Below are positions 1-30,600 of a stretch of 64,000 bases of DNA, piece after piece. The position numbers were made by a program, and so were the translations under genes. The DNA lies in assembly GCA_944380355.1 (NCBI GenBank), contig CALWHJ010000002.1, positions 368-64,367 on the forward strand, given 5' to 3'. Numbering within the stretch: position 1 is the stretch's first letter; each line of letters opens with the position of its first letter. The notes under the pieces are model-generated. The model was not told where the DNA came from, made no database searches, and saw only the letters and a list, made by a program, of their open reading frames with translations. Origin of the DNA: an uncultured Christensenellaceae bacterium. GTDB lineage: Bacteria > Bacillota > Clostridia > Christensenellales > UBA3700.

Positions 1-311
1 TGTCGAGGTGAGCGAAAGCGAGCGCGGAGAGTGGTGCGATTTTGCGAATTTTAAGAGAGTTCGCGAGCGGAGTATATATATTTTATCCGCTTGAAGACAG
101 TACCGACAAAGGGTTATATTCGCTTTAGCTAATATACACCCTTTCGTTTGGTCGGTATAGAGCGAACCCGACGTCTTGCCTTACGCTTTCGATACTTCGG
201 AAGCGTGGGTATTTTGTCGAGGTGAGCGAACCGTAACTGAGCGCAAGCGTCGCAGATAAAGGCAAAATATGCGCCGCTAATTTACACACTTCGTGCGAGA
301 GTAAAATTAAC
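1..311. repeat. degenerate partial copies of the modular intergenic repeat family
   Basis: TGTCGAGGTGAGCGAA at 1-16 and 215-230; GTCGCAGATAAA at 249-260 and 412-423; 20-75 is the reverse complement of the 5675-5725 module. Confidence 0.6.
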
Positions 312-454
312 TATTATTAACTTCGTGAGACCTTGGAGAAGGGTGTGATTTTTTCTTTTTCAAGACCGACTACGACAGGAGCGTACTTGCCGTACGTGAC
401 TGAGTAGGAGCGTCGCAGATAAAAGGAAAAGGCGCGCCCTTATACAAGGTCGCC
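312..454 (-). repeat. modular hairpin repeat, full copy A
   Basis: Reverse complement of 22502-22635 with 2 mismatches in 134 nt (hand alignment); ends on the mnmE stop codon. Confidence 0.9.
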
Positions 455-1779
455 TATTTGCCTAAGCAAAACTTGGAAAATATTCTGTCTACTATCTCTT
501 CCGTCGCAGTCGTTCCCGTTATCTCTCCTAAAGCTACGTAGGCATCTCTCAAATCTATAAGCACGCATTCAGTAGGGAGAGTATCTATATTCAAAGAGGC
601 GTTGATGACGCTTTCTAGCGCGCGGGCTATTGCTTGTGCGTGTCGCTCGTTGGTGATGACGTCGCCGGAAGAATCTAATGTGCCTATGACGGTATCGACG
701 ATTTTTTCTTTTAATTCGTCTATTCCTTGACCTTTTTTCGCGCTTATGCGTACGCCGTCGCGGGTATCGGAATAGAGGTCGCATTTGTTTATTACGAGAA
801 GTATTTTCTTATCCTTGTCAAAACGGGAGATAAGGTCTTTTTCGTAGTCGTTTAAATCTCGTCCCGCTTCTGTCAGAAAGAGTATTATATCGCTGCCTTT
901 CGCCGCCTCTATACTTCTCTCCACGCCTATAGCCTCAACTACGTCGCTGGTTTCGCGTATGCCGGCTGTGTCGATAAGACGCAAAAGCACGCCCTTGACC
1001 TCTAGCGTTTCTTCGAGACTGTCGCGCGTAGTGCCTGCTATCTCGGTAACTATGGCGCGCTGTTTTCCTAAAAGCGCGTTGAGAAGAGAGGATTTTCCTA
1101 CGTTGGCCTGACCGATTATCGCTACGTTGATTCCCTGTCTGATATATCCACCCGTGCGTGAGGTATTGAGCAATTTTTTCAGCTCGTCGGTTATATCCTT
1201 GCTTACTGCCTTGCCGTCCGCGCGCGCCTCTTCCTCCATCTCCTCGGGATAATCCAGACTTGCTTCAAGATGCGAAACGCAGTCGAGTAGTCTGTCCTGC
1301 AAAGAGGTGATTTTACGGGCTATGTCTCCGCTTGACAGACGATAACCCGCATTGAGTGCGGCACTGCTTTCGCCGTTTATCATATCAATTATACCTTCGG
1401 CATCGCTCAGGGCAATTTTGCCGTTGAGAAAAGCACGCTTGGTAAATTCTCCCTTGTCTGCTACGTCGCAGCCTAAGTCGATACAGCGTCTTAAAAGCTC
1501 ACTCACGAGCCTTACTCCGCCGTGACATTGAAATTCCACGAGGTCTTCTCCCGTATACGAATGAGGTGCTTTGAAATAAACGGCTAATATATTGTCTTTA
1601 AACTTTCCTATATCCGCCGTGCCGTAATACATATAATTAGGGGAAGCGTCCTTAAAACTAGCGAGTTTTTTAGTAGAAAAAATGTGGGAGGCAATTTCCA
1701 AAGCCTTGTCTCCGCTCATTCTGACTACGGCTATCGCGCCTTTTCCAACGGGGGTGGATATAGTTGCTATCGTCTTCAT
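454..1779 (-). CDS. mnmE: tRNA modification GTPase MnmE (TrmE)
   Basis: 441-aa ORF; G-domain motifs GQANVGKSSLLN (G1), DTAGIRET (G3), NKCD (G4); canonical C-terminal CLGK. Confidence 0.95.
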   Translation of the reverse strand: MKTIATISTPVGKGAIAVVRMSGDKALEIASHIFSTKKLASFKDASPNYMYYGTADIGKFKDNILAVYFKAPHSYTGEDLVEFQCHGGVRLVSELLRRCIDLGCDVADKGEFTKRAFLNGKIALSDAEGIIDMINGESSAALNAGYRLSSGDIARKITSLQDRLLDCVSHLEASLDYPEEMEEEARADGKAVSKDITDELKKLLNTSRTGGYIRQGINVAIIGQANVGKSSLLNALLGKQRAIVTEIAGTTRDSLEETLEVKGVLLRLIDTAGIRETSDVVEAIGVERSIEAAKGSDIILFLTEAGRDLNDYEKDLISRFDKDKKILLVINKCDLYSDTRDGVRISAKKGQGIDELKEKIVDTVIGTLDSSGDVITNERHAQAIARALESVINASLNIDTLPTECVLIDLRDAYVALGEITGTTATEEIVDRIFSKFCLGK

Positions 1780-1863
1780 AATTTAATTATAACACACGCG
1801 GTATGCGTTTGCAAATACAAAGAGCGTGTGATATAATAATCGTAAATTACAAAGGCAAGAAAT

Positions 1864-3732
1864 ATGTTGGACAGTTACGATAAAAATTACGATGCGATAG
1901 TAATAGGCGCGGGACACGCGGGAGTAGAAGCGTGCCTTGCTTTGGCGCGCCTGGGACATAAGACGCTGGTAGTAACTTTGTCTTTGGACGCGATAGCTTT
2001 TATGGCTTGCAATCCCGCTATCGGCGGTACGGCAAAAGGCCACTTAGTAAGAGAAATCGACGCTCTCGGCGGACAGATGGGAATATCAGCCGACCATAAT
2101 CTTTTGCAGATTCGTATGCTCAATATGGGCAAGGGCGCGGCGGTACAGTCTTTGAGAGGACAAGCCGACAAAACTCTCTATCATCACTATATGAAGCGCG
2201 TACTCGAAAACGAGCCTGATTTGGATATTCTGCAAGGAGAAGTCGCGGAAATACTTGTCGAAAACGGCAAAGTCTGCGGTATAAAAACTACTCTCAATCA
2301 AGAGTTTTTCTGCGACGCGATAGTAGTAGCAACGGGCGTATATCTAAACGCTCACATAATAATCGGCGACAACGTAACAAAGACGGGACCCAACGGTTTT
2401 GCGCGCGCTACGCGCCTTACCGACAGCCTTATAAAACTCGGTATTCCCACAAGAAGATTCAAGACGGGTACTCCCGCAAGAGTCGATAAAAAGTCAATCA
2501 ACTTCGACGTAATGCAAGTGCAGAAAGGCGACGATAATATATATCCTTTTTCCTTTATGACAAAGGGATTCGTACCCAACAAGGAAGTGTGTTATCTCAC
2601 TTATACCACTCAAAAAACCAAGGATATCATTATGCAGAATATCGACCGTTCTCCTTTGTACAACGGCTCTATTCACAGCATAGGTCCCAGATACTGCCCG
2701 TCGATTGAAGACAAGGTAATGCGCTTTGCCGACAAGGAAAGACATCAGATATTTATCGAACCCGAAAGCTCGCTTACGGACGAAATGTACGTGCAGGGTA
2801 TGTCTTCCTCACTTCCTTTCGACGTACAGCTCGAAATGTACAGAAGCGTTATAGGTCTTGAAAAGGTAAAAATACTCAGATTTGCTTACGCCATCGAATA
2901 CGACTGCATAGATTCGCTTTGCCTTACTCCTTATCTTATGACAAAGGATATACAGGGACTGTTCCTCGCGGGACAGCTCAACGGAAGCAGCGGATACGAA
3001 GAAGCCGCCGCTCAGGGTATTATGGCGGGCATCAACGCGTCGCGTTATCTTAAAAACGCCGACTACGTAGTACTCAAAAGAGACAGTTCGTATATAGGCG
3101 TACTAATCGACGATTTGGTTACAAAAGGCACCAATGAGCCTTACCGTATGATGACGGCAAGAGCAGAACACAGACTTCTTTTAAGACAAGAAAACGCTGA
3201 CCAAAGACTTACTCCTATCGGAAGAGAAGTAGGACTGGTATCAGACGAAAGATGGCAAAATCTGCAGACTAAAATAAATACAATAAAAGAAATCGACAAA
3301 AAGCTGGACAAAATCATACCTCCCAGAGAATACCGCGCATTTTTCGAGTCGATAGGAGAATCCGTACCAAACAACGGTTTATCCTATAAGGATATGCTAA
3401 AGCGCGCAGGCATTACCTACGATATGCTTACGGATAACTTTGACGAGCTGAAAACTCTGGACAGAAGATGTATGGAAGAAGTCGCGACTACCGTCAAATA
3501 TGCCGGATATCTCGTCAAACAGCAAGCTATGATAGAGGATATCAACAAGCTGGAAAATAAGGTTTTGCCTGAGAATATTGACTATAACGATATAAAGGGA
3601 CTGAGAATAGAAGCAAGGCAAAAACTCGATAAAATCCGTCCTCTCAATCTCTCGCAAGCTTCGAGAATAAGCGGAGTTTCTCCCGCGGATATTACCGTGC
3701 TTTTGGTATATCTTGCAAAAAACAAACTCTGA
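1864..3732 (+). CDS. mnmG: tRNA uridine 5-carboxymethylaminomethyl modification enzyme MnmG (GidA)
   Basis: 622-aa ORF; N-terminal FAD fold YDAIVIGAGHAGVEA; length and collinearity typical of GidA; followed by rsmG. Confidence 0.95.
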   Translation: MLDSYDKNYDAIVIGAGHAGVEACLALARLGHKTLVVTLSLDAIAFMACNPAIGGTAKGHLVREIDALGGQMGISADHNLLQIRMLNMGKGAAVQSLRGQADKTLYHHYMKRVLENEPDLDILQGEVAEILVENGKVCGIKTTLNQEFFCDAIVVATGVYLNAHIIIGDNVTKTGPNGFARATRLTDSLIKLGIPTRRFKTGTPARVDKKSINFDVMQVQKGDDNIYPFSFMTKGFVPNKEVCYLTYTTQKTKDIIMQNIDRSPLYNGSIHSIGPRYCPSIEDKVMRFADKERHQIFIEPESSLTDEMYVQGMSSSLPFDVQLEMYRSVIGLEKVKILRFAYAIEYDCIDSLCLTPYLMTKDIQGLFLAGQLNGSSGYEEAAAQGIMAGINASRYLKNADYVVLKRDSSYIGVLIDDLVTKGTNEPYRMMTARAEHRLLLRQENADQRLTPIGREVGLVSDERWQNLQTKINTIKEIDKKLDKIIPPREYRAFFESIGESVPNNGLSYKDMLKRAGITYDMLTDNFDELKTLDRRCMEEVATTVKYAGYLVKQQAMIEDINKLENKVLPENIDYNDIKGLRIEARQKLDKIRPLNLSQASRISGVSPADITVLLVYLAKNKL

Positions 3733-3778
3733 TATTATACCTCTTATATTATTCGTATAACGGACAGACTCAAAAGCT

Positions 3779-4486
3779 ATGGAAAATTTACCTTTGTTAT
3801 GTGAATTTTTAGAAAACAACGGTTATTCCGCACAAAAATATGCGGATAAGTTTTCACGCTGTTTCGAGCTTCTTATCGAGTGGAACGAAAAATTCAATCT
3901 TACGGCTATTACGGATAGAGAAGGCGTAGAGACAAAGCACTTTATTGACAGTTTTTTAGGAAACGTCATACTCAAAAACATAAATGCAAAAAGCGTATGC
4001 GATATAGGTTGCGGAGCGGGCTTTCCGTCAATTCCTCTTGCTATAATAAATCCCGATATAAATTTTACTCTCGTAGACAGCGTAAATAAAAAAATCACTT
4101 TTATAGAAGAATTGAAAAGACAGCTCGCGCTTGACAACGTAGAATGTTTTCACTCGCGTGCAGAGGACTTTGCGCGTATTAATTTTCAAAAATTCGACTG
4201 TTGCGTTGCAAGGGCTGTAGCGGCTCTTCCTACGCTGGCTGAGTATACTTTGCCTTTGATCAAAAAAGGCGGATACCTTTTGGCTTATAAGGGTATTAAT
4301 TATCAGGAAGAATTAAAAAATTCACAGAAAATACTTAGTATTCTAAACTCCGAAACAGATAATATTTATGAGAGTTCTCTCCCGGACGGTGAAAAAAGAT
4401 ACATACTGACAATAAAAAAAACAGGCGACTGCCCGAAAAAATATCCGAGAGGCGGAAACAAACCCAGAATATCTCCTATTGTTTGA
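3779..4486 (+). CDS. rsmG: 16S rRNA (guanine527-N7)-methyltransferase RsmG (GidB)
   Basis: 235-aa ORF; SAM motif DIGCGAGFPSIPLAI; conserved position after mnmG. Confidence 0.9.
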   Translation: MENLPLLCEFLENNGYSAQKYADKFSRCFELLIEWNEKFNLTAITDREGVETKHFIDSFLGNVILKNINAKSVCDIGCGAGFPSIPLAIINPDINFTLVDSVNKKITFIEELKRQLALDNVECFHSRAEDFARINFQKFDCCVARAVAALPTLAEYTLPLIKKGGYLLAYKGINYQEELKNSQKILSILNSETDNIYESSLPDGEKRYILTIKKTGDCPKKYPRGGNKPRISPIV

Positions 4487-4727
4487 AGCTTTTTTGTATT
4501 TCAATAACAAATAACAAGGTATATACGACGCAAGTATATGCCTTTTTTTATATTGAAAATTCAAAGACGTATATAAGAAAAAACTTTTAAATTTTATATT
4601 TATTGTTCTGTTTTTTATTATTCTGTCAAGTTGTAGGTTAAATTCTTGCATATATTTTTTTTGTTTGGTATAATAATATAAAATATTTTAAGGTTTTACC
4701 TCAAAAAGCGTGTACAGGAGGTTACTT

Positions 4728-5600
4728 ATGAAAAAGGAAAGTAACGGCTCTAATATAGAAAAAATGCTCGATATCGACGAGCAGATTACTTCTTACGATA
4801 AGGACGGCAAACTCACTGAAGGCGTTGAGTTGATGTCGCTTGCAAAGATTATCACTAATCCTAATCAGCCCAGAAAAAAATTCGATGAAAATCTTCTCGA
4901 AGAACTTGCCGCTTCTATCAAAAATTACGGCGTTATTCAGCCTATTATCGTATGCCCCGTCGGAGACGATACCTACGAGATAGTAGCAGGTGAGAGAAGA
5001 TACAGAGCAAGCAAAATAGCGGGCAATACCACCGTACCCGTTATCATCAAAAAACTCAGCTCAAAACAGCGCAAAGAAATTGCCCTTATTGAAAACCTTC
5101 AGCGTCAGGACCTCAATCCTATCGAAGAAGCTCAGGCTTATAAGGCACTTATAGACGAATACGGTTTTACGCAAGAACAGCTTGCCGACAGACTGGGAAA
5201 ATCCCGTCCTGTCATTACCAACTCTTTGAGACTTCTCAATCTCAATCCCGTAGTAATAGATATGGTCATCAACGGCAGACTTTCCGCAGGCCACGCAAGA
5301 TGCCTGTCTTCCATAAAGGACTATATAGTACAGAATACATACGCTATCGCAGCCTGCGATAAGCAACTCAGCGTACGTCAGCTGGAGATAATGGTAAGAA
5401 ATTATCTCAATCCTAAAAAGAGCGATAAAAAACCTACTGAATTGCCCGTAGAACTGAAAGACCTTGCTAATATTATGCAGAAGAAATTCGGTACTAAAGT
5501 AAATGCCGTAGGTACTAATAATAAAGGAAGAATTTTTATAGATTATTATACGGCGGAGGATTTGGACAGAATTTACGATATTCTCGCCAAAATTAAATAG
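4728..5600 (+). CDS. parB: ParB/Spo0J/Noc-family partition or nucleoid-occlusion protein; no parA beside it
   Basis: ParB box GERRYRA and HTH region; AGGAGG 7 nt before the ATG at 4728, so the track start at 4710 is rejected. Confidence 0.85.
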   Translation: MKKESNGSNIEKMLDIDEQITSYDKDGKLTEGVELMSLAKIITNPNQPRKKFDENLLEELAASIKNYGVIQPIIVCPVGDDTYEIVAGERRYRASKIAGNTTVPVIIKKLSSKQRKEIALIENLQRQDLNPIEEAQAYKALIDEYGFTQEQLADRLGKSRPVITNSLRLLNLNPVVIDMVINGRLSAGHARCLSSIKDYIVQNTYAIAACDKQLSVRQLEIMVRNYLNPKKSDKKPTELPVELKDLANIMQKKFGTKVNAVGTNNKGRIFIDYYTAEDLDRIYDILAKIK

Positions 5601-5745
5601 GCAAGCGCGTATAGCGGCGCGCCTTTTATAATTTTGGCGAGCAGTTACGCTCGGTCACGTACATCTAGTACGCTCCGCTCGCGAACTCTCTTAAAATTAA
5701 AAAAATCACACCACTCTCCGTGCTTGCACGAAAGTATGTAATATA
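5600..5745 (+). repeat. modular hairpin repeat, diverged full copy B
   Basis: GGCAAGCGCGTATAGCGGCGCGCCTTTT...CGTAC-atcta-GTACG...AAAAAAATCACACCACTCTCCGTGCTTGCACGAAAGT; starts on the G of the parB TAG. Confidence 0.8.
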
Positions 5746-5782
5746 TAATTATTTTTAGAGCAGTTAAACTCAATTAAATACT

Positions 5783-5932
5783 GCAAGTACGCGCCTTTGC
5801 GGGCGACCTCGAAAAAGCCAACTCTACACCCTTCTCCAAGGTCGCACGAAGTGGGTAATAAATAAGATAAAATCTGAAAAAGATAAACTCTACACACTCT
5901 TCGTGCTTGCAAGAAGTGGGGTAATATAAATT
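5783..5932 (+). repeat. two tandem partial copies (right-half and right-end modules)
   Basis: ...GTACGCGCCTTTGCGGGCGACCTCGAAAAAG...CACCCTTCTCCAAGGTCGCACGAAGTGGGTAATAAA, then ...CACACTCTTCGTGCTTGCAAGAAGTGGGGTAATATAAA. Confidence 0.7.
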
Positions 5933-5953
5933 GTTATAATTATTTTTTAAATT

Positions 5954-6301
5954 ATGAATATAAATTACTTATTGCCTATAATAATTGCCGTGATTTTTTT
6001 GATGATAATTATGTCGTCAAACAAGATATTGACGGCTTATATAGTCAAAAGAAACATAAAAAGAAAAAGGGGACTAAATCAAAATATGAACGAACTTCTT
6101 CAGAGTTTTGTAGAAAAAGACTGTATTATATATTGCATAAACAATACGTCTGTTGACGGAATTATAAAAGACGTAAAAGAAAATGCCGTACTTATAGAAA
6201 CGCGCGACGGACTTCAGCTTATCAATACCGATTTTATCACCCGCGTTAGAGAATATCCTAAAGGCAAAAACGGCAAAAGAAAAGGCTTTTTGATGGATTA
6301 A
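5954..6301 (+). CDS. hypothetical membrane-anchored small protein
   Basis: 115-aa ORF with one N-terminal TM helix (LLPIIIAVIFLMIIM); followed by a hairpin terminator; no recognisable motif. Confidence 0.5.
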   Translation: MNINYLLPIIIAVIFLMIIMSSNKILTAYIVKRNIKRKRGLNQNMNELLQSFVEKDCIIYCINNTSVDGIIKDVKENAVLIETRDGLQLINTDFITRVREYPKGKNGKRKGFLMD

Positions 6302-6317
6302 TCAATAAAAAATAAAT

Positions 6318-6343
6318 ACCGCTCTTAATTGAGCGGTTTTTTT
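6318..6343 (+). terminator. rho-independent terminator
   Basis: ACCGCTC-ttaatt-GAGCGGT followed by a T-run. Confidence 0.7.
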
Positions 6344-6447
6344 ATTTGCCTTTTAAAAAATATTATTTAATTAAACTTATAAAAAACCACCCTCACATTA
6401 GTACGGAGAGTAGTATTATTTTATAAGTTTTAAAATTTATCAAAATT

Positions 6448-6591
6448 TTATTACCCACTCCGTGCGACCTTGTATAAGGGGGTGATTTTTTCTTTTTCTA
6501 GGTCGCCCGCAAAGGCGCGTACTAGATGTACGTAACTGCCACGGGTGTACCGCAGACAAAAGGAAAAGGCGCGCCCTTATACAAGGTCGCC
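6448..6591 (-). repeat. modular hairpin repeat, full copy C
   Basis: Perfect 17-bp terminal inverted repeats GCGACCTTGTATAAGGG (6464-6480) and CCCTTATACAAGGTCGC (6574-6590); ends on the dnaN stop codon. Confidence 0.9.
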
Positions 6592-7697
6592 TATCTACTG
6601 CGTATAGGCAAAATAAGATACAAATACTCATTGCTCTCTATAGGAGTAATTACGATAGGCGAATTGCTGTTTAAAAACTTCATAGAGATATATTCGTCCT
6701 GAGTATTTTTGATGCAGTCAGTGAGATACTTTGCGTTGAGATTTACGCTCATATCCTTACCGCTGGTAAAGGTATTTATTACTTCCTTTATGTTGCTGGT
6801 GGCAGTATTGCAGTAGATGGTCATTTTACCTTCTTTTATGTCCATCTTAATGTAGTTGTTTTTGTCCATACGGGCAATTACGTCTACCTTGTCCATACTG
6901 TACTCGAGACTTGCTCTGTCTACTGTTACTACCGTTTCGAAAGTAGTGGGAATGGTGGACTGATATTTTATAAACTGACCTGCTATCAAAGAAGTGATAA
7001 CCTTTGTGTTGTCAAACTCAACGCACATTTTCTTGTCGTTGATATTTAGGGTAATTTCATTTTCTTCGTCCTCAAAAAGTTTGGATATTTCGCTAAGGCT
7101 CTTAGCGGGTACTATAATCTCTTTTGAAGGATATTCATTGTCAAGCTCTTTGTTGCATACTGCAAGTCTGTAACCGTCAAGACCTACGCTCTTAATTTCT
7201 TTTCCGTTGACGGAGATAAGACAGCCTTTGAGTTGTTGTCTTACTTCCTCGGTGGAAGTAGCAAATATAGTCTTATTGACCAAATCTTTGAAATCCTTCT
7301 GCTTTATAGTAAGCTGCATATCGTACTTTTGCTCTTCAATGGAAGGATATTCGTTTATATTCATAGTAGCAAGGTAAATAAAGCTGTCGCAGTGAGTGAT
7401 GCAAAGCTTATCCTTTTCTATATCGCTGTCAAACTCTATTATGTTTTCCTTGCTTATTTTTCTTATATACTCGCAGATAGTTCTGCCGGGAACGAGTACT
7501 TCTCCTTCGAGAATAATATCCGCTCTTATTTTCATAACTACTACAAAATCAATATCCGTAGCCATAACAGTGAGGGTATCTTTGAACGCGCTGAACTTTA
7601 TGCCTTCGAGAATAGGCATACTCTTTTTAGAAGGCAATGCCTTCATTACTTTTGACAAAGCGTCGGACAAATCCATACCGTTGCAAATAAACTTCAT
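6591..7697 (-). CDS. dnaN: DNA polymerase III beta sliding clamp
   Basis: 368-aa ORF directly downstream of dnaA on the same strand; N-terminus MKFICNGMDLSDALSKV...PILEGIKF is typical of DnaN. Confidence 0.95.
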   Translation of the reverse strand: MKFICNGMDLSDALSKVMKALPSKKSMPILEGIKFSAFKDTLTVMATDIDFVVVMKIRADIILEGEVLVPGRTICEYIRKISKENIIEFDSDIEKDKLCITHCDSFIYLATMNINEYPSIEEQKYDMQLTIKQKDFKDLVNKTIFATSTEEVRQQLKGCLISVNGKEIKSVGLDGYRLAVCNKELDNEYPSKEIIVPAKSLSEISKLFEDEENEITLNINDKKMCVEFDNTKVITSLIAGQFIKYQSTIPTTFETVVTVDRASLEYSMDKVDVIARMDKNNYIKMDIKEGKMTIYCNTATSNIKEVINTFTSGKDMSVNLNAKYLTDCIKNTQDEYISMKFLNSNSPIVITPIESNEYLYLILPIRSR

Positions 7698-7964: not shown

Positions 7965-9308
7965 TTACTTCTTTTGTATCATATTCTTGATGTCTTTTAT
8001 CTGAGTGGCAATCATATTGTCGGTCTTTGACAATTCTTCTATCTTATCTCTTGCGTAGATAATGGTAGTATGGTCCCTTCCTCCGAAATAACTGCCTATC
8101 GTAGCAAGAGGTACTCCCAAAAGGTCGTTTATGAGATAGATAGCGATTTGTCTTGCCATTACTATCTGTTTGAGTTTTTTCTTTCCGATAACTTCCTGTT
8201 TTTTTATGTTGAAATAAGAGCAGGTAGCGTCTACTATACTGTCGAGCGAAAGTATGTGAGTAGTTACGTCAATATCGTCTTTCAGGGCTTCTTTTATTAT
8301 ATCTATATTGTCGGGTTGCTGACCTTTGAGCTGACAATAGAAAATTACTTTTTGAAGCGCGCCTTCGAGTTCTCTTACGTTTTTATCGAATTTTTCTGCG
8401 ATAAAGTAAACTACGTTTATAGGAAGGTTTACGTTTTTAAAGAAAGCCTTTTTCTGAAGTATTGCTATTCTCGTCTCGAGGTCGGGCAAAGATATGTCTA
8501 CCGTAAGACCGCTTGAGAATCTTGACTGAAGTCTTTCTTCCAGGAAAGTGAGTTCTCTTGGATGACGGTCAGAAGATATTACGATTTGCTTTTTTGACTG
8601 ATACAAGTCGTTGAACGTATGAAACAATGCTTCCTGACTAGTTATCTTGCCTGACAGAAACTGTATATCGTCAAGCATAAGTACGTCGACTCTTCTGTAT
8701 TTTTCCCTGAATTTAATATTTTCAATATTGTCTTTTGAATTTTTAAGACTGTCTATAAAGTCATTTACAAACTGTTCGGTAGTGCAATATAGAATTTTTG
8801 ACTTTTTATTGTTTTTTAAAATCTCGTTGCCGATAGCGTGCATAATGTGAGTTTTACCAAGTCCTACGCCTCCGTATATGAAGAGAGGATTGTGAAGTGT
8901 ACCCGGTTGGCTTGCTACGGCTTTTGCGGCAGCGTAAGCTATTTGGTTAGAAGAGCCTACTACGAATTTATCGAAAGTAAAATTAGGGTCGAAAATAGAA
9001 GAGTAATTAGAATTTTCTTCTTTCTTTTCATCTTCGATTTTTGTCTGATATACCGGTATTTCTTCGGGCGTGATTATAAGATAATCATCAACGTAAGTAT
9101 TGAGCTTTTTAATCTCGTCGAGAATAATATTGCGGTAATTTTTGTTTATAGTGTTTTTAGCCGACTTGAGGTTGGCTACCAGAATGAGTTTATTGTAAGC
9201 GATAGTAAGAGGTTCAAGATTTTTGAACCACATATCGTAACTTACGGTAGATATATTGTTTGATATTCCGAGCAACAATACGTCCCAGATTTTTTTGCTT
9301 TCTTCCAT
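7965..9308 (-). CDS. dnaA: chromosomal replication initiator DnaA
   Basis: 447-aa ORF; AAA+ Walker A GGVGLGKTHIMHAIG; Walker B VLMLDDIQFL; C-terminal DNA-binding domain (GGRDHTTIIYA). Confidence 0.97.
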   Translation of the reverse strand: MEESKKIWDVLLLGISNNISTVSYDMWFKNLEPLTIAYNKLILVANLKSAKNTINKNYRNIILDEIKKLNTYVDDYLIITPEEIPVYQTKIEDEKKEENSNYSSIFDPNFTFDKFVVGSSNQIAYAAAKAVASQPGTLHNPLFIYGGVGLGKTHIMHAIGNEILKNNKKSKILYCTTEQFVNDFIDSLKNSKDNIENIKFREKYRRVDVLMLDDIQFLSGKITSQEALFHTFNDLYQSKKQIVISSDRHPRELTFLEERLQSRFSSGLTVDISLPDLETRIAILQKKAFFKNVNLPINVVYFIAEKFDKNVRELEGALQKVIFYCQLKGQQPDNIDIIKEALKDDIDVTTHILSLDSIVDATCSYFNIKKQEVIGKKKLKQIVMARQIAIYLINDLLGVPLATIGSYFGGRDHTTIIYARDKIEELSKTDNMIATQIKDIKNMIQKK

Positions 9309-9450
9309 ACGTATATTATACTATAGACGGCTTAAAATTTCAATTATATTTATATAAATAGAAAAATTCAAAAAAATATATTTGATTTATAAACAAAAAA
9401 CAAGCAGATTTGATAATAAAATTTTTATTATCAATAAGAATAAACGCTCT

Positions 9451-10521
9451 TTATTGAGGTATTTTGATAAGATTATGATTTAAATTTTCTTCAAACTCGG
9501 TACAGGTGATTAAAGTCTGAAGTCCTGCAGACAGTTTAAGGAGTTTTTCACGTCTTGAAGCGTCGAGTTCGCTGAGTACGTCGTCGAGCAGAAGTACGGG
9601 TTTTTCTCCCGTTTCGCTTTCAAAAAAACTGATTTCTGCAAGTTTTAAAGACAGCGCAACAGTGCGTTGTTGTCCCTGCGAAGCGAATTTTCGGGCGTCT
9701 ACACCGTTTATTTTTATAGATATATCGTCCCTGTGGCATCCGAAAGAAGTGTATTGCAAAGACAAATCTTTTTCAAAGTTTTCGTTGAGTTTTTTCAAAA
9801 ACTCTTCCTTTATAGAGCTTATTTCTCCCTGAGGTATTTCGCATTCGTATTCAAGTTGAAGATTTTCTGAATTATTGCTTATTTCAGAATGAGTATTGCG
9901 TGCAAAAACTTTTATTTTTTCTATAAATTCGTATCTCTTCAAAATTATGGTCGCACCGTAAGAAGCAAGCTGAGAATCCCAGCCGTAGAGCATCTCTTTT
10001 ATTTTATCGGGATTGTGTTCTTCCTTTAAAAGTTTGTTGCGCTGAGCTACGATTGCATTGTATTTTGACAGTGCGTTGAAATAATTTTTATTTTGCTGAG
10101 AAAGACTTATATCCATAAATCTTCTTCTTTCTACGGGACTTTCTTTGACAAGTTTCATCTCGTCGGGAGAGAAAAACACTATATTGAGCATACCCAGTAT
10201 CTCGCTGAGTTTGACAAGAGGTATGCCGTCTATCGCAATACGCTTTTTATCCTGTCGGTCGATAGAGTATTCTATCGTATGAGTGGATTTGTTTTTTTTG
10301 ATTGTTACTTTGATATAGGCGTATTCGCTTCCCCAGCGTATCATATCCTTGTATTTATTAGTACGGGGAGAACGACCTATGCCCGCTACGTAAACGCTCT
10401 CTAACAGATTTGTTTTGCCGCTTGCGTTTTGTCCCACTATAATATTCAGACCGTCTTTGAACAATACGGTCTTGTCTTGGTAGTTTCTGAAATTTTTGAG
10501 AGTAACGCTTTCTAAGTGCAT
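9451..10521 (-). CDS. recF: DNA replication/repair protein RecF
   Basis: 356-aa ORF; Walker A GQNASGKTNLLES; signature FASQGQQRTVALSLKLAE; Walker B LLLDDVLSELD. Confidence 0.93.
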   Translation of the reverse strand: MHLESVTLKNFRNYQDKTVLFKDGLNIIVGQNASGKTNLLESVYVAGIGRSPRTNKYKDMIRWGSEYAYIKVTIKKNKSTHTIEYSIDRQDKKRIAIDGIPLVKLSEILGMLNIVFFSPDEMKLVKESPVERRRFMDISLSQQNKNYFNALSKYNAIVAQRNKLLKEEHNPDKIKEMLYGWDSQLASYGATIILKRYEFIEKIKVFARNTHSEISNNSENLQLEYECEIPQGEISSIKEEFLKKLNENFEKDLSLQYTSFGCHRDDISIKINGVDARKFASQGQQRTVALSLKLAEISFFESETGEKPVLLLDDVLSELDASRREKLLKLSAGLQTLITCTEFEENLNHNLIKIPQ

Positions 10522-10861: not shown

Positions 10862-11881
10862 ATGATTTGCGATAATTGCGGAAAAGAGGTAAGCGGACCT
10901 TATTGTCCCAATTGCGGACATCCAACAGGGTTATATTCCAATATGAAAATGGAATACGACCCCGACAACGTAGAACATTTCATATCTGCGAATGAAACAA
11001 ACACGTTCAAAAGCACAGACGAAGTAAAAAAGACCGTAGTCAGAAGAGGGGATAAATTTAGACAGGCGGAAGAAGAAAAGAAGGAACAGAAACTTCAGTC
11101 TGTTCAATCCGAGGAAAACTCAAAAGAGGATAAAAAAGCCAAGGATTCAAAGAAAAAGTCAAAAAAAGAGCAAGAAGTCATACAGCCCGAAGACAGTGAC
11201 AGATGGATTATTGCGCCTGTGGATTTTTTTGAAGAAGAAAAAAAATCCAGATTTACAAGCGGTGCGTTCGGATTGTTTTTTATAAGACTGCTCGTAACGT
11301 TGGTATCGACAATTACTCTTGGGCTTGCATATCCTTCTATGGTGTGTTTCTATTATAAGTGGGTAGCGGCGAATACTGAAATAAACGGCAGAAAAACCTA
11401 CTTTGACGGCAACGGACTTCAGCTTTTCGGCAAATACGTACTGTGGGTTTTTCTCACCGTTATCACGCTGGGAATATATTCTTTCTGGCTGGTAGTAAAA
11501 ATGAAACAATGGATTGTATCGCATACTCACTACGTCGACGAAGCCGGAGAGGATAAAAAATCAGAGTTTACGGGCGGTGCGTTCGGATTGTTTTTTGCGC
11601 GTCTGGGCGCGGTGCTTCTGACGATTGTTACTTTGACGATAGGTTTTGCCTGGGCTAAATGCCGGCTTGAAAGATGGAAGGCAAATCACACCGTAATTGA
11701 CGGATATAAACAACAATTTACAGGAAAGGGCGGAAGCTTGTTCGGTAAGTACGTATTATGGACGCTGCTTACGATAATCACTCTCGGCATATACTCCTTC
11801 TGGTATCAGGCAAACTGGAAAAAATGGATTACTGCCAATACGCAAGGAATAAATAAAGAGAGCATAAATTTGACTATATAA
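10862..11881 (+). CDS. zinc-ribbon membrane protein with two DUF898/YjgN-like repeats
   Basis: N-terminal CDNCG...CPNCG; K/E-rich linker; two homologous about 95-aa TM modules (FTSGAFGLFF... and FTGGAFGLFF...); GGAG RBS. Confidence 0.7.
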   Translation: MICDNCGKEVSGPYCPNCGHPTGLYSNMKMEYDPDNVEHFISANETNTFKSTDEVKKTVVRRGDKFRQAEEEKKEQKLQSVQSEENSKEDKKAKDSKKKSKKEQEVIQPEDSDRWIIAPVDFFEEEKKSRFTSGAFGLFFIRLLVTLVSTITLGLAYPSMVCFYYKWVAANTEINGRKTYFDGNGLQLFGKYVLWVFLTVITLGIYSFWLVVKMKQWIVSHTHYVDEAGEDKKSEFTGGAFGLFFARLGAVLLTIVTLTIGFAWAKCRLERWKANHTVIDGYKQQFTGKGGSLFGKYVLWTLLTIITLGIYSFWYQANWKKWITANTQGINKESINLTI

Positions 11882-19982: not shown

Positions 19983-20470
19983 GTGTAATACCGCAAGCGT
20001 ATTTTGCAAACTTGCCGTAAGCGTATCTTTTGCGTGCTTTTTATTTCGGCGTCCTCGTAATACAGCAAGTATTACTTCGTCCTTCTCAATAAAAATCATT
20101 GCAAAATCTTCAGTTTACGGCTAAGTTTTTAAAATTTACTTGCGGTATTTTTTTGCTAAGTAATTCTCGCCGACTTGCCTATTAAGTACAAGCGGATTAA
20201 TATCATATTTAAATCTGCCTTATTCTTAAAAATGGCGCGGCGCGCAGGCAATACTTGCTGTATTGTCAAGTGAGCAAACAAAACAAAAAAAAGTCTAAAA
20301 ATAAAAAAAGTACCGCAAGACGGCGGTAAGGGCTAGGCTGTAGACAGCGAATTTTCCGGTAATTTGCTTTGAGAAGGACGAAATAATACTGGATGTATTT
20401 TGAGGACGCCGATATGCAAATTACGGAAAAGGTGCGTTTATAGACAGCCCGCACCGCCGCCTTGCGGTAC
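19983..20470. repeat. complex inverted-repeat structure in a 564-bp non-coding gap
   Basis: Arms 20043-20090 and 20368-20416 are about 80% reverse-complementary by eye; each has a GTAATAC-N5-GTATTAC-type hairpin; outer arms 19983-19997 / 20457-20470. Confidence 0.7.
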
Positions 20471-20471
20471 A

Positions 20472-21161
20472 CTATACATGAAAACGTTTTCTGAATTCGT
20501 TTATAAGCGACTTTCTTCCCAGTATTCCGCAGAATATAATCACTACCGACGAAACGCAAGCGCAGGTTATGGACATTGCGGGTTGGGTAATGACGTTGAA
20601 AGCGTAAAGAATTATAGGTATAAAACCTACCGCAGATACGCACATTGCATCGACTATTACGTCATTCCAGAAGCGGAAAGCTATTGCCGTATAAATACCT
20701 ACTACGAGCGTAGAAGACAAAAGTATCGTCGGCAATCCGTAATTCCATACCCACGCGCCCGTAAGCTCTGCCAATTCTTTAGACAGTATGACGTTGACTA
20801 CCAAAAGCACAATTAATGCCCATACGCATTGCCAGAATATTTTTACGCCTATGCTGTTGTTGGAGAGTATGGTGTTGCGCACCAATACAAAACCGTATAC
20901 GCCTAATATTCCCACTATTCCGAACCAGTAAACTTCGGGAGTGGTAAGAAGGTTTATCGGTATGCAAAGGATAAATACGGATATAGCAATCGAAAGATAA
21001 AGACTGCTGGGAGAAAGGTACTTTCGCTCCTTTTTCGTGCTTTTAGAAGGGTATGCCGAGGGGAGTGCATCGGTAGAGTTATCGTCCTCGAGTTTTTCGT
21101 GGCAGAGAGGGCAGACCTTTGCCTTGCATCCTATCTCTACGTTACAGTATTTACAGCGCAT
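20472..21161 (-). CDS. zinc-ribbon polytopic membrane protein
   Basis: 229-aa ORF; N-terminal CKYCN...CPLCH; about 6 TM helices; GGAGG RBS; overlaps the upstream ORF by 11 nt. Confidence 0.65.
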   Translation of the reverse strand: MRCKYCNVEIGCKAKVCPLCHEKLEDDNSTDALPSAYPSKSTKKERKYLSPSSLYLSIAISVFILCIPINLLTTPEVYWFGIVGILGVYGFVLVRNTILSNNSIGVKIFWQCVWALIVLLVVNVILSKELAELTGAWVWNYGLPTILLSSTLVVGIYTAIAFRFWNDVIVDAMCVSAVGFIPIILYAFNVITQPAMSITCACVSSVVIIFCGILGRKSLINEFRKRFHV

Positions 21162-22455
21162 TGTCCACCTCCCAGAAGTTGGACGTAACGGTGAGGTTTA
21201 CGCCGTCCTTCGTAAGATAACTTGCAAAATTTTTCTCTATCTGCGTATCGGTGATACGTCTTGTGAAGGTAATACACAGCTTGCCGTTGCAAGAAATAAT
21301 CGACAGCGAAAGAGGGGTTGTCGCATTTGACGATATAGCAAAGCTTACGCTTTCCACGTGCTTTTTCATACTGTCGGGGATATCCAGCACACCGAAATTA
21401 GACAGCGTTGCCGTCTTTTTTTTCTTGCCGAAAAAGTAGTTGGAGAAATTAAAGAAAAATCTCTTTACGAAAAGCGGTACGAATCTTACGAGGAAAAACT
21501 TTTCCGCCCATACCGTAGTGGAAATTTTGTCTTTCAGCACGTCCTTGTCCATATCGCGCTTGAGGTTGTCGTGCATAATCTTTATGAGTTTATCCATCTC
21601 CATATCTTCATAAGGATTGCAACCTATACGCGAAAACAAAGAGAAGTTTCTCAGCGTTTTTGAGCCGAAAATCTTTCTGAGATTGATAGGCACGAAAAGC
21701 TGTATATTGTTTGCATTTTCTTCCTTGCCTTTTATCTGGCTTTCGTATATTGCCATCATAAACAGCGCGCCGAGATATTCGGTCATAGTACAGCCTTTTG
21801 CGTGACAGATATCCAGCACTTCCTTGACGTCGCAGTACATATGAATTATACCGTTGCCTACGTTGTCAAAGAGTATTCCCTTGATATGGTATGCGTTTTT
21901 GCCCTGCATATCCTTGACCTTGAGGTCTTTGAGGGGAAGCTTCTTGTAGTTGGCAAGAAAAGAGTCTTCAAGCTCTTCGCGCATTACGGGAGAGCCTACG
22001 GTGAGTACCTTCTGGTCAGAGAATACTTCTTTTCCCGATAGATTGAGGTACGTATATACCAGGCTTTTGACAAACTCCGCCGCGCCTGTCGCGTCGCATA
22101 TCGCGTGGAAAAAATCGCATACGATTTGCATATCGAAATAGCTTACTCTGAAGCAGTAACCGTTGCACGACTTATCCGTAATCTTTCTGAAAGACAGCGG
22201 GTCCAACGGATAAACTTTAATCTTTGCGTGGTTGTCGTCGAGATAATACCAAAACGCGCCTTTCATAAGGCGTACCTTGTATACGGGAAAACGCTCTATC
22301 GTCATTTTAAGAGCGTCGAGCAATATATTTTTGTCCACCTTTTCCTTAAGCGTAACGCTCAGTCTGAAGATGTTTTGACTTTTCTTATTAACAAGCATAG
22401 GATAAATTTTAGCCGAATTATCCAGTCTGCTCCAAGTTTGAAGTGATTTAGCCAT
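21151..22455 (-). CDS. HxxxD-motif acyltransferase (condensation/alcohol-acetyltransferase-like superfamily)
   Basis: 434-aa ORF; FFHAICDATG matches the HxxxD catalytic motif of the CAT/condensation/WS-DGAT fold. Confidence 0.65.
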   Translation of the reverse strand: MAKSLQTWSRLDNSAKIYPMLVNKKSQNIFRLSVTLKEKVDKNILLDALKMTIERFPVYKVRLMKGAFWYYLDDNHAKIKVYPLDPLSFRKITDKSCNGYCFRVSYFDMQIVCDFFHAICDATGAAEFVKSLVYTYLNLSGKEVFSDQKVLTVGSPVMREELEDSFLANYKKLPLKDLKVKDMQGKNAYHIKGILFDNVGNGIIHMYCDVKEVLDICHAKGCTMTEYLGALFMMAIYESQIKGKEENANNIQLFVPINLRKIFGSKTLRNFSLFSRIGCNPYEDMEMDKLIKIMHDNLKRDMDKDVLKDKISTTVWAEKFFLVRFVPLFVKRFFFNFSNYFFGKKKKTATLSNFGVLDIPDSMKKHVESVSFAISSNATTPLSLSIISCNGKLCITFTRRITDTQIEKNFASYLTKDGVNLTVTSNFWEVDNAL

Positions 22456-22461
22456 ACAGTT

Positions 22462-22490
22462 ATTATAGCACTTAGATTATATAAATACAA
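22462..22490 (-). promoter_or_regulatory. candidate promoter giving a leaderless mRNA for 21151-22455
   Basis: Minus strand reads TTGTAT, 17 nt, TGCTATAAT, 6 nt, ATG; no Shine-Dalgarno sequence. Confidence 0.45.
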
Positions 22491-22501
22491 CCCCTTTTTT
22501 T

Positions 22502-22645
22502 GGCGACCTTGTATAAGGGCGCGCCTTTTCCTTTTGTCTGCGACGCTCCTACTCAGTCACGTACGGCAAGTACGCTCCTGTCGTAGTCGGTCTTGAAAAA
22601 GAAAAAATCACACCCTTCTCCAAGGTCGCACGAAGTTAGTAATAA
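22502..22645 (+). repeat. modular hairpin repeat, full copy E
   Basis: GGCGACCTTGTATAAGGGCGCGCCTTTTCCTTTT...CGTAC-ggcaa-GTACG (22560-22574)...GAAAAAGAAAAAATCACACCCTTCTCCAAGGTCGCACGAAGTTAGTAATAA. Confidence 0.9.
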
Positions 22646-22932
22646 GGCAAGGCGGCACGCCTTTTGTCAAATATCTGCTCGGCATAATTTTATCCGCATA
22701 CAGGGATTTCGAAGAACGTCTCGATATAGTAGCGGGAGAGAAGAGTGCGAAAGAGATGGTAAAAGAAGTTTTTGACAAAAAGTTAGGCAAGGTAACGAAA
22801 AGCGATATTATGGAGTATTGTTCTACGCTAAGCCGTTCGGCAGTCGAAAAGGCTTTGAGAGAATTGGTTGGCGAGAATATTATATTCAAAAGAGAAAAAG
22901 GACCTGCGACTTACTATATACTCAACATATAG
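22597..22932 (+). pseudogene. 3' remnant of a Fic/DOC-family-like gene (C-terminal winged-helix part)
   Basis: Open frame with no proper start reads ...FVKYLLGIILSAYRDFEERLDIV...SDIMEYCSTLSRSAVEKALRELVGENIIFKREKGPATYYIL*; its 5' end runs into repeat copy 22502-22645. Confidence 0.4.
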
Positions 22933-22973
22933 ATTTATTGCATTACGGTATAGGTTTGTTGTCAAGCGGCGGT

Positions 22974-23225
22974 TTATACCGCGGTGCATAAAAGCCTGCA
23001 AATCAAGTAAAGGCTTTCTCCGACAATGCCGCCTATGCCGCTGATGAAAATCTGCATATAAGTTACACCGCCCGTAAAGGCGCAGACAATACAGCCTATG
23101 CCGCCTGTCAGGAGATTGCAAGCGACGTAAGGATAAAGCTGTTTTTTGTAGCCCGCTATATAGCGGACTATAAGTCCCGGCGCGACTCCCGTGATAAAGA
23201 TGAATATATATTCGTAAAGGTACAT
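22974..23225 (-). CDS. hypothetical small membrane protein
   Basis: 83-aa hydrophobic Gly-rich ORF; no clear RBS. Confidence 0.35.
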   Translation of the reverse strand: MYLYEYIFIFITGVAPGLIVRYIAGYKKQLYPYVACNLLTGGIGCIVCAFTGGVTYMQIFISGIGGIVGESLYLICRLLCTAV

Positions 23226-23371
23226 ACTAAATTGTATTTTGCTTTTACCGCGATTATGCGCGTATAAGATTTTTACGGAGTGCGTACGAAAGGTTTATTT
23301 GCAAGTCGAAAAGGGGAAAACAGTTAATCAATCCGGCTAATAAATATATATATTTTTATTTAAAAAAAGAG

Positions 23372-23491
23372 TTATCCACCTTGAAAAGCGATTTTTGTGG
23401 ATAACTTTTTTATATTGTATATATTATATATATCAATATGTATACTCCGAAAAGGCGGTAAAACGCTATAAAATAAGGGTAGTTATCCACA
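23372..23491. promoter_or_regulatory. second DnaA-box cluster with an AT-rich core
   Basis: TTATCCACC 23372-23380, TGTGGATAA 23396-23404, TTATCCACA 23483-23491, flanking the AT-rich TATATTGTATATATTATATATATCAATATGTATAC. Confidence 0.6.
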
Positions 23492-23633
23492 TCGCAGAAA
23501 GCCTTTCGACATAATGCGCGTGCATGTCAATTATAGGGCATAAATCAAAAGTTTTTTACACTGCTTTTGCCCAATACGGAAAAACGGCGGTATAATGTAA
23601 TTGCGTTTACTCCTTCCCCTTTTCGGAGAAATT

Positions 23634-25085: not shown

Positions 25086-25086
25086 T

Positions 25087-25317
25087 ATGGCAAAACGTAC
25101 CCCTTATATGAAAGTCGCGTCTTTGGGAAAGATACTCGTAAGGACGGACAGAGGCAAGACCTTTTATGCACATAAGGTAAGCACGAATTATCCTCCCGCT
25201 CTCGACGAATGGCAGGAGATAGACGAGCCTGAAGGCATTGTCAAGGTCAAAATTATACCGCCTTCTTTTCTGTCGGCAGAAGCAGTAGCGCGTTACTTCC
25301 CCGTTGACGCGGATTAA
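25087..25317 (+). CDS. hypothetical small protein
   Basis: 76-aa ORF starting 1 nt after the upstream stop (TGAtATG), so coupled; no motif recognised. Confidence 0.4.
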   Translation: MAKRTPYMKVASLGKILVRTDRGKTFYAHKVSTNYPPALDEWQEIDEPEGIVKVKIIPPSFLSAEAVARYFPVDAD

Positions 25318-25394
25318 AAATCCTGAATATTGCCGACAAAGCAAATTGCTATGATAAAACTTGTCTTCTTGCTCATACTATGCTCGGAGGAGTT

Positions 25395-25916
25395 ATGAAA
25401 GAGACAGGTATTGTAAGAAGAATAGACGAGTTGGGAAGAGTGGTAATTCCCAAAGAACTCCGTAAAGTGCTCAAACTCAAAGAGGGAGAGCTTCTCGAGA
25501 TTTACACCAACGACAAGCAAGAATTGGTACTCAAAAAGTACAACGAAGTCGGCGCGGACAGCGACCAGCTTCAGGCTATGTGCAAAATACTGTACAAGAC
25601 TACGGGTAAGGAAACCTTTATCTGCGATACGGGCGCCATTCTCGCGCATTGCGGAGGCAGCGAGCCTCTCGAAGGAGAAGAGATAAGCGATGAGCTTTAC
25701 AAGCTTCTCGTCAACCGTCGCAGCCGTCACCTTACCGACAATCCCGTCAAGCCGACAGAGACGTCTTCCGACGAGGGCGGCGAACAGTATATCGTGCCGT
25801 TGGTATCGAGGGGGGATTTGTACGGGGGTATAGTGTTGTCCGCGCAAAAACTCGACGGAAGCGACTTTGTAGTCTGCGACGCTATGGCGCAGTATCTCTC
25901 GTACAACATAGGATGA
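25395..25916 (+). CDS. spoVT: stage V sporulation regulator SpoVT (AbrB-family)
   Basis: GIVRRIDELGRVVIPKELRKVLKLKEGELLEIY is the SpoVT/AbrB swapped-hairpin domain; GAF-like C-terminus; GGAGGA RBS supports ATG 25395; spoVT-yabM-yabN synteny. Confidence 0.85.
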   Translation: MKETGIVRRIDELGRVVIPKELRKVLKLKEGELLEIYTNDKQELVLKKYNEVGADSDQLQAMCKILYKTTGKETFICDTGAILAHCGGSEPLEGEEISDELYKLLVNRRSRHLTDNPVKPTETSSDEGGEQYIVPLVSRGDLYGGIVLSAQKLDGSDFVVCDAMAQYLSYNIG

Positions 25917-30456: not shown

Positions 30457-30465
30457 ATTCTATCG

Positions 30466-30600
30466 CGCCCTTGTATATCGGCACGCCTTTCGTTTTTCCT
30501 GCGACGCTCCCGCTCAGTCACGTACGGCTAGTACGCTCCTGTCGCGCTCGGTTTGGAAAAAGCAAAAATCACGCTAATCTCTAAGGGCTTTACTCTCCTA
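30466..30600 (+). repeat. modular hairpin repeat, diverged copy F; more related modules up to about 30790
   Basis: GCGCCCTTGTATATCGGCACGCCTTTCGTTTTTCCTGCGACGCTCCCGCTCAGTCACGTAC-ggcta-GTACGCTCCTGTCGCGCTCGG...AAAAATCACGC. Confidence 0.75.

Follow-up and report, generated by a model that had tools for sequence, protein, structure and literature searches.

We describe a hairpin repeat of roughly 145 nt in a window of 64,000 nucleotides from an uncultured Christensenellaceae bacterium (GenBank assembly GCA_944380355.1, contig CALWHJ010000002.1, positions 368 to 64,367 of the forward strand; positions below count from the first letter of this window). Three copies of the repeat adjoin the ends of genes, namely mnmE (454–1779, minus strand), a parB/noc-like gene (4710–5600, plus strand) and dnaN (6591–7697, minus strand). 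A first-pass annotation, made from the sequence alone, had given these genes their names, which agree with NCBIfam. By direct reading, the MnmE protein in the window ends in FCLGK; as we take this to be the usual C-terminus of the family, MnmE is presumably not truncated.

Copies and Anatomy of the Element

All five full copies claimed by the annotation are present at about the reported positions, each an imperfect palindrome of 143–148 nt by covariance model (CM) boundaries; boundaries from 200-nt minimum free energy (MFE) folds were too noisy for use. The pattern of the centre, GTYACGTAC-N5-GTACGCKCC, has six matches in the window versus 0.06 expected. Copy A occupies 310–456 on the minus strand (apex 378–400; 138.8 bits with CM R1), copy B 5598–5745 on the plus strand (apex 5654–5676; CM 127.2 bits) and copy C 6447–6593 on the minus strand (apex 6514–6536; CM 128.6 bits). 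Each of the three begins with a TAG that is also a stop codon, that of mnmE (454–456) in copy A, of parB (5598–5600) in copy B and of dnaN (6591–6593) in copy C; the annotation had placed the start on the G of the stop. Copy D (22500–22646, plus strand; apex 22556–22578; CM 141.5 bits) is not on a stop codon, its left end being 47 nt from the start codon of an opposite-strand gene (21151–22455). The most diverged copy, E (30462–30604, plus strand; apex 30517–30539; CM 101.8 bits), has its left end about 8 nt from the start codon of trmL (30456, opposite strand; named by NCBIfam). Placement at a stop codon is therefore seen for three of the five window copies.

The partial modules that the annotation had listed also correspond to detectable fragments. 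The right two-thirds of a copy follow copy B in tandem at 5754–5863 (plus strand; nhmmer model positions 38–148, E 4.8e-17; repeat D10), and a B-type right-end fragment, recognized by direct reading against the right end of copy B and ending in ...CACACTCTTCGTGCTTGCAAGAAGTGGGGTAATATA, lies at about 5866–5932 (plus strand). On the minus strand, there is a left-arm fragment at 232–279 (model positions 15–62, E 5.6e-5; repeat D16) and a B-type inner right-half fragment at 18–72 (model positions 76–130; I6, 89% complementary to 5673–5727). Another inner right-half fragment follows copy E at 30646–30688 (plus strand; I10, 79% complementary to 27–69).

A single long hairpin folds in every window copy. 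Its apex is GTCACGTAC-N5-GTACGCTCC, in which the loops GGCAA, ATCTA and GGCTA vary on a constant CGTAC/GTACG stem, as originally noticed. The unit starts with GGCGACC or GGCAAGC. Alignment confirms that the termini of the diverged subfamily represented by copy B are altered in a complementary way (GCAAGC...GCTTGC), and the terminal inverted repeat of copy C is indeed a perfect 17 bp (I14). The right end carries a conserved unpaired tail, ACGAAGTnnGTAATA, which extends 16–18 nt beyond the foot of the hairpin, while the left end has no tail; this tail is part of the element, a correction to the earlier description. Inner modules of at least three types and outer modules of at least three types combine as a mosaic in the family, which backs the label "modular" given to it. 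It displays the generic features of a MITE (miniature transposable element with inverted repeats): the copies are small, non-coding, numerous and bounded by terminal inverted repeats. Positions 3 and 21 of GTYAC...GCKCC, the degenerate ones of the apex, co-vary among all loci (C with T, T with G, with few mixed cases), and they form no Watson-Crick pair on either strand.

Two other identities were rejected. A conserved peptide at the centre does not fit a loop of 5 nt here and 4 nt in the ERIC repeat of E. coli, a difference that shifts the reading frame. An integron attC site is not compatible with upstream genes of housekeeping type and with a conserved part that is the apex and not the ends.

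Placement at Stop Codons in Relatives

A scan with the centre pattern over one genome per species returned 119 loci, many of them long palindromes with the exact apex. These palindromes were seen in Clostridia, Selenomonadales, Bacteroidales, Opitutales, Myxococcota, Gamma- and Deltaproteobacteria, Alicyclobacillus and enterobacteria, and the same apex caps hairpins of about 130 nt across phyla, including those on a phage contig. Matches in Streptomyces were excluded, since they lie inside coding sequence without a long palindrome around them. A metagenome scan with the left-end pattern returned one locus. Judged by its apex, the window element is thus one of a wider set of hairpin elements of about 130–150 nt that share GTCACGTAC-N5-GTACGCTCC.

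The asymmetric apex sets the orientation of each element. When open reading frames (ORFs) of at least 100 aa that end 20–80 nt from the apex are considered, a co-oriented ORF ends on the left-arm side of 51 of 69 elements, and an opposite-strand ORF ends on the right of 6 of 69 (p 5.7e-10). At loci below 55% G+C the same test gives 29 left versus 3 right. With model-defined ends, the end of a co-oriented gene falls in the interval from 17 nt inside the left end to 8 nt before it in 52 of 75 elements, and a gene ends at the right end in 1 of 75 only. The fixed orientation at stop codons that had been described for the window hence extends far beyond it. The commonest arrangement of the CM-defined elements is that in which the stop codon makes up the first three nucleotides. 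Elements found by the CM without an exact apex behave similarly, 7 of 14 being placed at a stop codon in the same manner. On the phage contig, which derives from IMG/VR (L129), copies at 5920–6065 and 9972–10111 start on or overlap the stop codons of the co-oriented ORFs 3794–5920 and 8505–9977, respectively.

The upstream ORFs are real genes in 20 of 20 cases tested, among them those for LysRS, GluRS, Obg, L1, ThiC and iPGM. In most of them, Pfam domains extend close to the last residues, indicating that native C-termini are kept.

The stop codons next to the 52 stop-adjacent elements comprise 20 TAA, 18 TGA and 14 TAG. Targeting of the TA within the stop codon, as suggested by the first-pass annotation, fits one pair of filled and empty sites described below; with 18 of 52 on TGA, however, a TA target alone is insufficient. 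TAG or AATAG stands before copies with no ORF upstream, too. The left end of copy D reads TTG in the window and TAG in its orthologue on a contig of a Christensenella metagenome-assembled genome (L050), and AAATAG precedes a copy (L067) that lies behind a 5S rRNA gene. These two copies lacking an upstream ORF indicate that TAG travels with the element or with its TA target. The precise position at stop codons could reflect either targeting or selection.

Related elements adjoin RNA genes as well (L067, 66–310; L033, 401–792; L087; L114). A 5S rRNA gene has one of them directly on its 3' side, and another is situated about 80–130 nt upstream of a 16S rRNA gene. The other RNA genes in question we tentatively take to be tRNA genes, for Ile and Ala.

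Fold, Covariation, and Strand Asymmetry

The arms of 67 elements from all phyla cannot be aligned by sequence, and MAFFT followed by RNAalifold on this set recovered the apex alone. We therefore relied on palindrome alignments of individual elements, on an alignment of 26 copies of the family, and on the CM. Read antisense to the upstream gene, the 26 copies adopt a consensus fold of −38.4 kcal/mol with 32 pairs, of which 23 show double, compensatory changes, and 94.4% of the alignment cells are paired. Read in the sense direction, the same copies yield a consensus of −11.0 kcal/mol only. The covariation score of 0.579 compares with 0.226 in shuffled alignments, none of 500 shuffles reaching the observed value, and with 0.04–0.14 in slid controls.

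Individual elements display the same asymmetry. Among the 67, the antisense strand is the more stable in 64, with mean energies of −63.6 kcal/mol antisense and −49.1 kcal/mol sense (p 1.5e-12), and DNA energy parameters give the same result for 66 of 67. Within the window, the sense and antisense MFE values are −37.5 and −60.5 kcal/mol for copy A, −46.0 (z −4.0) and −59.4 (z −5.6) for copy B, −59.5 and −74.3 for copy C, −44.4 (z −2.8) and −65.9 (z −7.6) for copy D, and −33.4 and −43.9 for copy E.

The nature of the mismatches offers a greater level of detail. On the sense strand, A.C oppositions outnumber G.U pairs (247 vs 139), and pyrimidine-pyrimidine oppositions outnumber purine-purine ones (666 vs 44). 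The A.C and pyrimidine-pyrimidine oppositions weaken the hairpin of the mRNA strand. The antisense strand makes use of G.U pairs and of purine-purine oppositions in the form of tandem G.A. By direct reading, the antisense apex consists of a G-C pair, tandem G.A/A.G, a G.U pair and then the five-pair stem, and in many families GCAGAUGC, present in both arms, gives rise to a second tandem G.A. On the sense strand, the first hairpin pair occurs 1–4 nt after the stop codon.

The selection on structure that the annotation suspected is thus evident in the compensatory changes, but the strand it had in mind, that of the mRNA, is the weaker-folding one. It is the opposite strand, antisense to the upstream mRNA, whose fold is under selection.

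The Element and Transcription Terminators

The first-pass annotation read the element as a portable transcription terminator or 3'-end stabilizer acting on the upstream mRNA. Its position directly after stop codons in a single orientation is what such a role would produce, and A- and T-runs flank the outer helix in some other families (L065, L081, L102). What had been described shortly after the stop as a GC hairpin plus T-run, however, is borne out for copy B alone: a terminator scan of positions 1–7000, a stretch outside which copies D and E lie, flagged the left arm of copy B (5605–5622) and left copies A and C unflagged. Direct reading shows no T-run after the hairpin of the window family, and the mRNA carries the weaker-folding strand. 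In addition, ordinary terminators lie downstream of the element. A candidate intrinsic terminator is located beyond copy C at 6380–6414 (minus strand), where a hairpin followed by UUUUUU has −12.9 kcal/mol and z −3.15, and the same succession of stop codon, element and terminator is found after L068a and after the dnaN copy of L124. This layout indicates that the element is part of the 3' untranslated region (UTR) and not itself the terminator; lying upstream of the gene's own terminator, it would make up the beginning of the transcribed 3' UTR. We consider a terminator or stabilizer role highly unlikely. Insertion into the loops of pre-existing terminators, another candidate, is not needed to explain the copy-specific outer helices, as these proved to be subfamily-specific.

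Gain, Loss, and Insertion in Close Relatives

Loci reached through MnmE homologues of 98%, 87% and 78% identity have the same gene order, which allows for a comparison of filled and empty sites. The parB site is empty in L124 and L125, reading AAATAA TATTAATATAGTT ATG. At the mnmE site, L122 and L123 have no full element, just a short hairpin that may be its remnant. Although the MnmE proteins of these two loci are identical, their elements at the parB site have different outer arms, changed in a complementary way. L126, the 98% relative, has two tandem elements where the window carries one. At the mnmE stop of L126 (11326–11352), there is also a 14-nt tandem duplication, AAATAGGCGACCGC, which the two tandem elements follow. 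Insertion offsets at shared stop codons are 0, +3 (GATAG TAG GCAAGC) and +5 (AAATAA AATAG CCGTTG), and belong to different subfamilies. Copies are thus gained, lost and swapped between close relatives, and in this lineage the gene ends of mnmE, parB and dnaN are hot spots that different subfamilies have occupied repeatedly.

The filled parB site of L122, AAA-TA/GGCGACC...GAAAA/TA-AAATATT (junctions marked by slashes), compared with the empty site of L124, AAATAATATT, fits a TA duplication. Copies A and C are compatible with this model; other junctions are ambiguous.

The region around copy D, 21317–28253, is syntenic with L050 at 92–94% identity. Of a stretch that spans about 1.4 kb in L050 (5275–6673), the window retains only the 3' remnant, at 22646–22932 next to copy D, and this suggests a deletion beside the element.

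Relation to the ERIC Repeat

The annotation recognized no named family in the element. This no longer holds, as the exact apex is found in ERIC copies of Serratia and Citrobacter, relating the element to ERIC/IRU. All of 5426 E. coli genomes carry, at 100% identity, the ERIC core, which we take to be the region ...CCCCAGTCACTTACTTATGTAAGCTCCTGGGG... of the ERIC-PCR primers. The Serratia copy (L061) aligns with E. coli ERIC along the whole length and has an apex identical to that of the window, and the Citrobacter copy combines the exact window apex with what is, by eye, ERIC architecture. The E. coli copy between ybhI and ybhJ (L120) begins right after the ybhI stop codon, GTCAC side first.

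All five window copies are detected (E 1e-7 to 1.6e-4 for a search size of 10 Mb) by a hidden Markov model (HMM) into which no copy of the window family or of enterobacteria had gone. This model also finds the Serratia and Citrobacter ERICs, and misses that of E. coli. CM R1 gives full-length matches in Muribaculaceae (65 bits), Bacteroidales (61 bits), Selenomonadales (60–72 bits), Acidaminobacter (54 bits) and Deltaproteobacteria (43 bits), with other Clostridia also among the full-length matches of 54–72 bits. Several proteobacterial and Opitutales elements reach about 27–43 bits, the apex giving most of the score. The Rfam family V_AS5 (RF02818, Vibrio RNA AS5), reportedly defined from RNAs cloned from Vibrio, matches ERIC on the antisense strand with 46.9 bits for the E. 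coli and 40.7 bits for the Serratia copy, both below its gathering score of 96. A literature search with the apex sequence returned primers only.

As the formal tests are weaker than the apex match, we file the element as ERIC-like at the level of a superfamily and not as ERIC proper. It can be described as a distant gut-Firmicute (Christensenellaceae) relative of enterobacterial ERIC/IRU and a previously undescribed variant.

Other Features of the Window

A second, unrelated hairpin repeat, TACCGACAAAGGGT...ACCCTTTCGTTTGGTCGGTA, adjoins ERIC-like elements in three genomes with 85–96% identity (window 84–246; L050 6558–6656; L068 7696–7857). A 49-nt direct repeat (11233–11281 and 11548–11596) ends in the terminator-like GCGGTGCGTTCGGATTGTTTTTT, and a 104-nt inverted repeat (20018–20121 and 20337–20440) shows 74% complementarity. 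Further along, a tmRNA gene precedes a low-GC stretch (31–36% G+C) between 145-nt direct repeats that are 92% identical; the segments listed for these features are 44871–45215, 45213–45357 and 55110–55254. A third, partial copy of the 145-nt repeat follows a tRNA gene, with segment 53027–53142 listed for this region. The low-GC stretch has the look of an island, about 9.9 kb in size, that integrated at ssrA. GC skew across the window is too weak for locating an origin.

Interpretation

The observations are best accounted for by a non-autonomous, non-coding MITE of the ERIC superfamily, situated in the 3' UTR between stop codon and terminator, and we regard this reading as fairly probable. It retains the central proposal of the first-pass annotation, a MITE-like hairpin repeat tied to stop codons. 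Insertion would occur at a TA and duplicate it, in the manner of ERIC. A ribosome that terminates at the stop codon would have to open the outer helix of 8 pairs, freeing the right arm and the tail, and such opening could couple translation to the decay of the upstream mRNA, by analogy with Yersinia ERIC. De Gregorio et al. reportedly described, in 2005, a preference of Yersinia ERIC in orientation and placement. An RNase E site has been proposed in the right arm of the Yersinia repeat (among PMC2229807, PMC2759123 and PMC10969869). The strand asymmetry would reflect selection on the single-stranded antisense form, be it a mobilized form or an antisense RNA.

Several points weigh against this interpretation. 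Were the mRNA strand the one that functions, one would not expect selection to favor a better fold of the opposite strand. The link to ERIC proper is faint by formal search, and similarity to E. coli ERIC over the full length is not significant: nhmmer with E. coli ERIC finds no match in the window, the family HMM does not find the ybhI–ybhJ copy, and CM R1 gives this copy 17.5 bits, on the predicted strand, with an E value of 0.008 that applies to a search of 25 kb only. The comparison with Rfam suggested by the first-pass annotation gave gathering-score matches in the window for tmRNA and one tRNA only, and the window copies match no family, V_AS5 included, either at gathering score or, across 1–7000, at E values up to 10. 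The loci from other phyla were collected via the exact apex, which at about 35 bits or less makes up most of the score. A fit to TA duplication is seen at one site only and leaves the 35% of elements on TGA unexplained. Within 3 kb of 68 elements, neither a transposase nor any other protein family is met repeatedly, whole genomes not having been searched exhaustively, and a likewise non-exhaustive search found no autonomous parent element with matching ends. Co-transcription, opening by the ribosome and cleavage by an RNase are steps that we infer.

Two other explanations give the antisense strand a more direct role. The functional product might be a small structured RNA, about 145 nt long and read from the strand antisense to the upstream gene, with a single-stranded 5' leader UUAUUACnnACUUCGU, the long hairpin with its tandem G.A, and an end at the complement of the stop codon. 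The position at stop codons would then reflect a tail-to-tail arrangement, and one possibility is that the hairpin blocks antisense transcription from entering the gene. The whole strand asymmetry agrees with such an RNA, from the stabilities in 64 of 67 elements and the z scores of copy D to the consensus energies of the 26 copies and the bias in sense-strand mismatches. So does the match of ERIC to V_AS5 on the antisense strand, and copies D and E would put the antisense strand in the leader of opposite-strand genes. We nonetheless consider it unlikely, because no conserved promoter was found (the tail is weakly −10-like, TATTAC, and only copies B and C have a promoter-like match), the CUAUUU tract after the antisense hairpin is a weak terminator signal, and the asymmetry is equally explicable by a single-stranded DNA intermediate of transposition.

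Such an intermediate is the basis of the other explanation, by which the element has no host function and moves as a single-stranded DNA hairpin of one polarity through a hairpin-recognizing transposase (cf. REP/RAYT, IS200/IS605), integrating into DNA made single-stranded just past stop codons. The persistence of the asymmetry with DNA parameters is what it predicts. Conserved mismatches together with a conserved apex are typical of hairpins recognized by a protein, and the tail of 16–18 nt at the right end only, the rapid turnover and the tandem and nested copies are also in line with it. We hold this to be quite improbable, since no gene for such a transposase was seen within 3 kb of the 68 elements and the one filled/empty pair fits a TA duplication, which insertion of the IS200/IS605 type does not make. 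Moreover, by the established geometry of forks and R-loops, replication and transcription expose the sense strand of co-directional genes and not the best-folding strand.

Beyond the ERIC-superfamily MITE that we favor, a broader and more speculative possibility, which we would still place on the unlikely side, is that ERIC is the enterobacterial tip of a bacteria-wide family of stop-codon-anchored hairpins that spans Firmicutes, Bacteroidota, Proteobacteria, Verrucomicrobiota and phages. The antisense apex, GGAGCGUAC-N5-GUACGUGAC with its tandem G.A, might be kept because a conserved factor or mobilization machinery recognizes the single-stranded form and delivers it to TAA, TAG and TGA in one orientation. 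We know of no reported transposition mechanism with such a target choice.

ERIC has served for decades as a typing tool, and reviews confine it to enterobacteria and vibrios. New here are the same apex and behavior in distant phyla, elements that are locked to native stop codons with an orientation ratio of about 50 to 1, and a conserved fold on the strand opposite to the neighboring mRNA. In this computationally derived pattern, the apex, the orientation lock and the strand asymmetry offer handles on site choice and on the purpose of the hairpin.

Comparison with Known Systems

Intrinsic terminators and the pneumococcal SPRITE resemble the element in being hairpins downstream of genes. Their hairpins are followed by a T-run, whereas the window family has none and continues with the tail ACGAAGTnnGTAATA. 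The REP, BIME and REPIN sequences are likewise extragenic palindromes at gene 3' ends that act as single-stranded hairpins, and REPs close to stop codons affect translation. REP and REPIN carry a linked RAYT gene; the window element, at about 145 nt, has no linked gene that we found within 3 kb and no head of their kind. REPs measure 20–40 nt and have a GTAG or CGTC head (PMC3733652).

Correia/NEMIS of Neisseria and RUP of pneumococcus are hairpin MITEs of about 100–160 bp with TA termini and TA duplication. As small hairpin MITEs they resemble the window element, and Correia/NEMIS is reported to be co-transcribed with neighboring genes and cut by RNase III. They share no sequence relation with it, however, and their conserved parts are the termini and not the apex. 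RUP has a parent, IS630-Spn1, of which no counterpart is known for the window element, and the texts consulted on both families report no stop-codon lock.

ERIC remains the nearest relative. Reviews describe it with TA termini, TA duplication and an orientation-dependent effect on upstream mRNA via RNase E (PMC2229807, PMC2759123, PMC10969869). Like the window element, it is a long imperfect palindrome forming one long stem-loop, with no coding capacity and of similar size (about 127 bp vs 143–148 nt), and it is reported to lie in transcribed intergenic DNA beside or overlapping stop codons in a preferred orientation. The hosts differ, being Christensenellaceae (Clostridia) here and Enterobacteriaceae and Vibrionaceae as reported for ERIC (PMC10969869). 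V_AS5 matches ERIC on its best-folding strand and gives no match to the window copies or to the tested elements of other phyla. The window family also has T-rich and A-rich arm segments and a conserved 3' tail of 16–18 nt, and lacks the CCCC/GGGG helix that flanks the ERIC core.

At the centre the two agree in part. The E. coli apex, GTCACTTAC-TTAT-GTAAGCTCC, differs from that of the window in a single loop base and in one pair, T-A instead of G-C, which is compensated; 16 of the 18 innermost fixed bases are common, and the two differences are the compensated pair. By eye, the arms have short blocks in common, GCAT.TGCTGCGT on the left and GCC..CTGCAAC on the right. The strand asymmetry is shared as well, with −44.4 sense and −54.4 antisense for the E. 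coli copy and −49.4 and −63.5 for that of Serratia.

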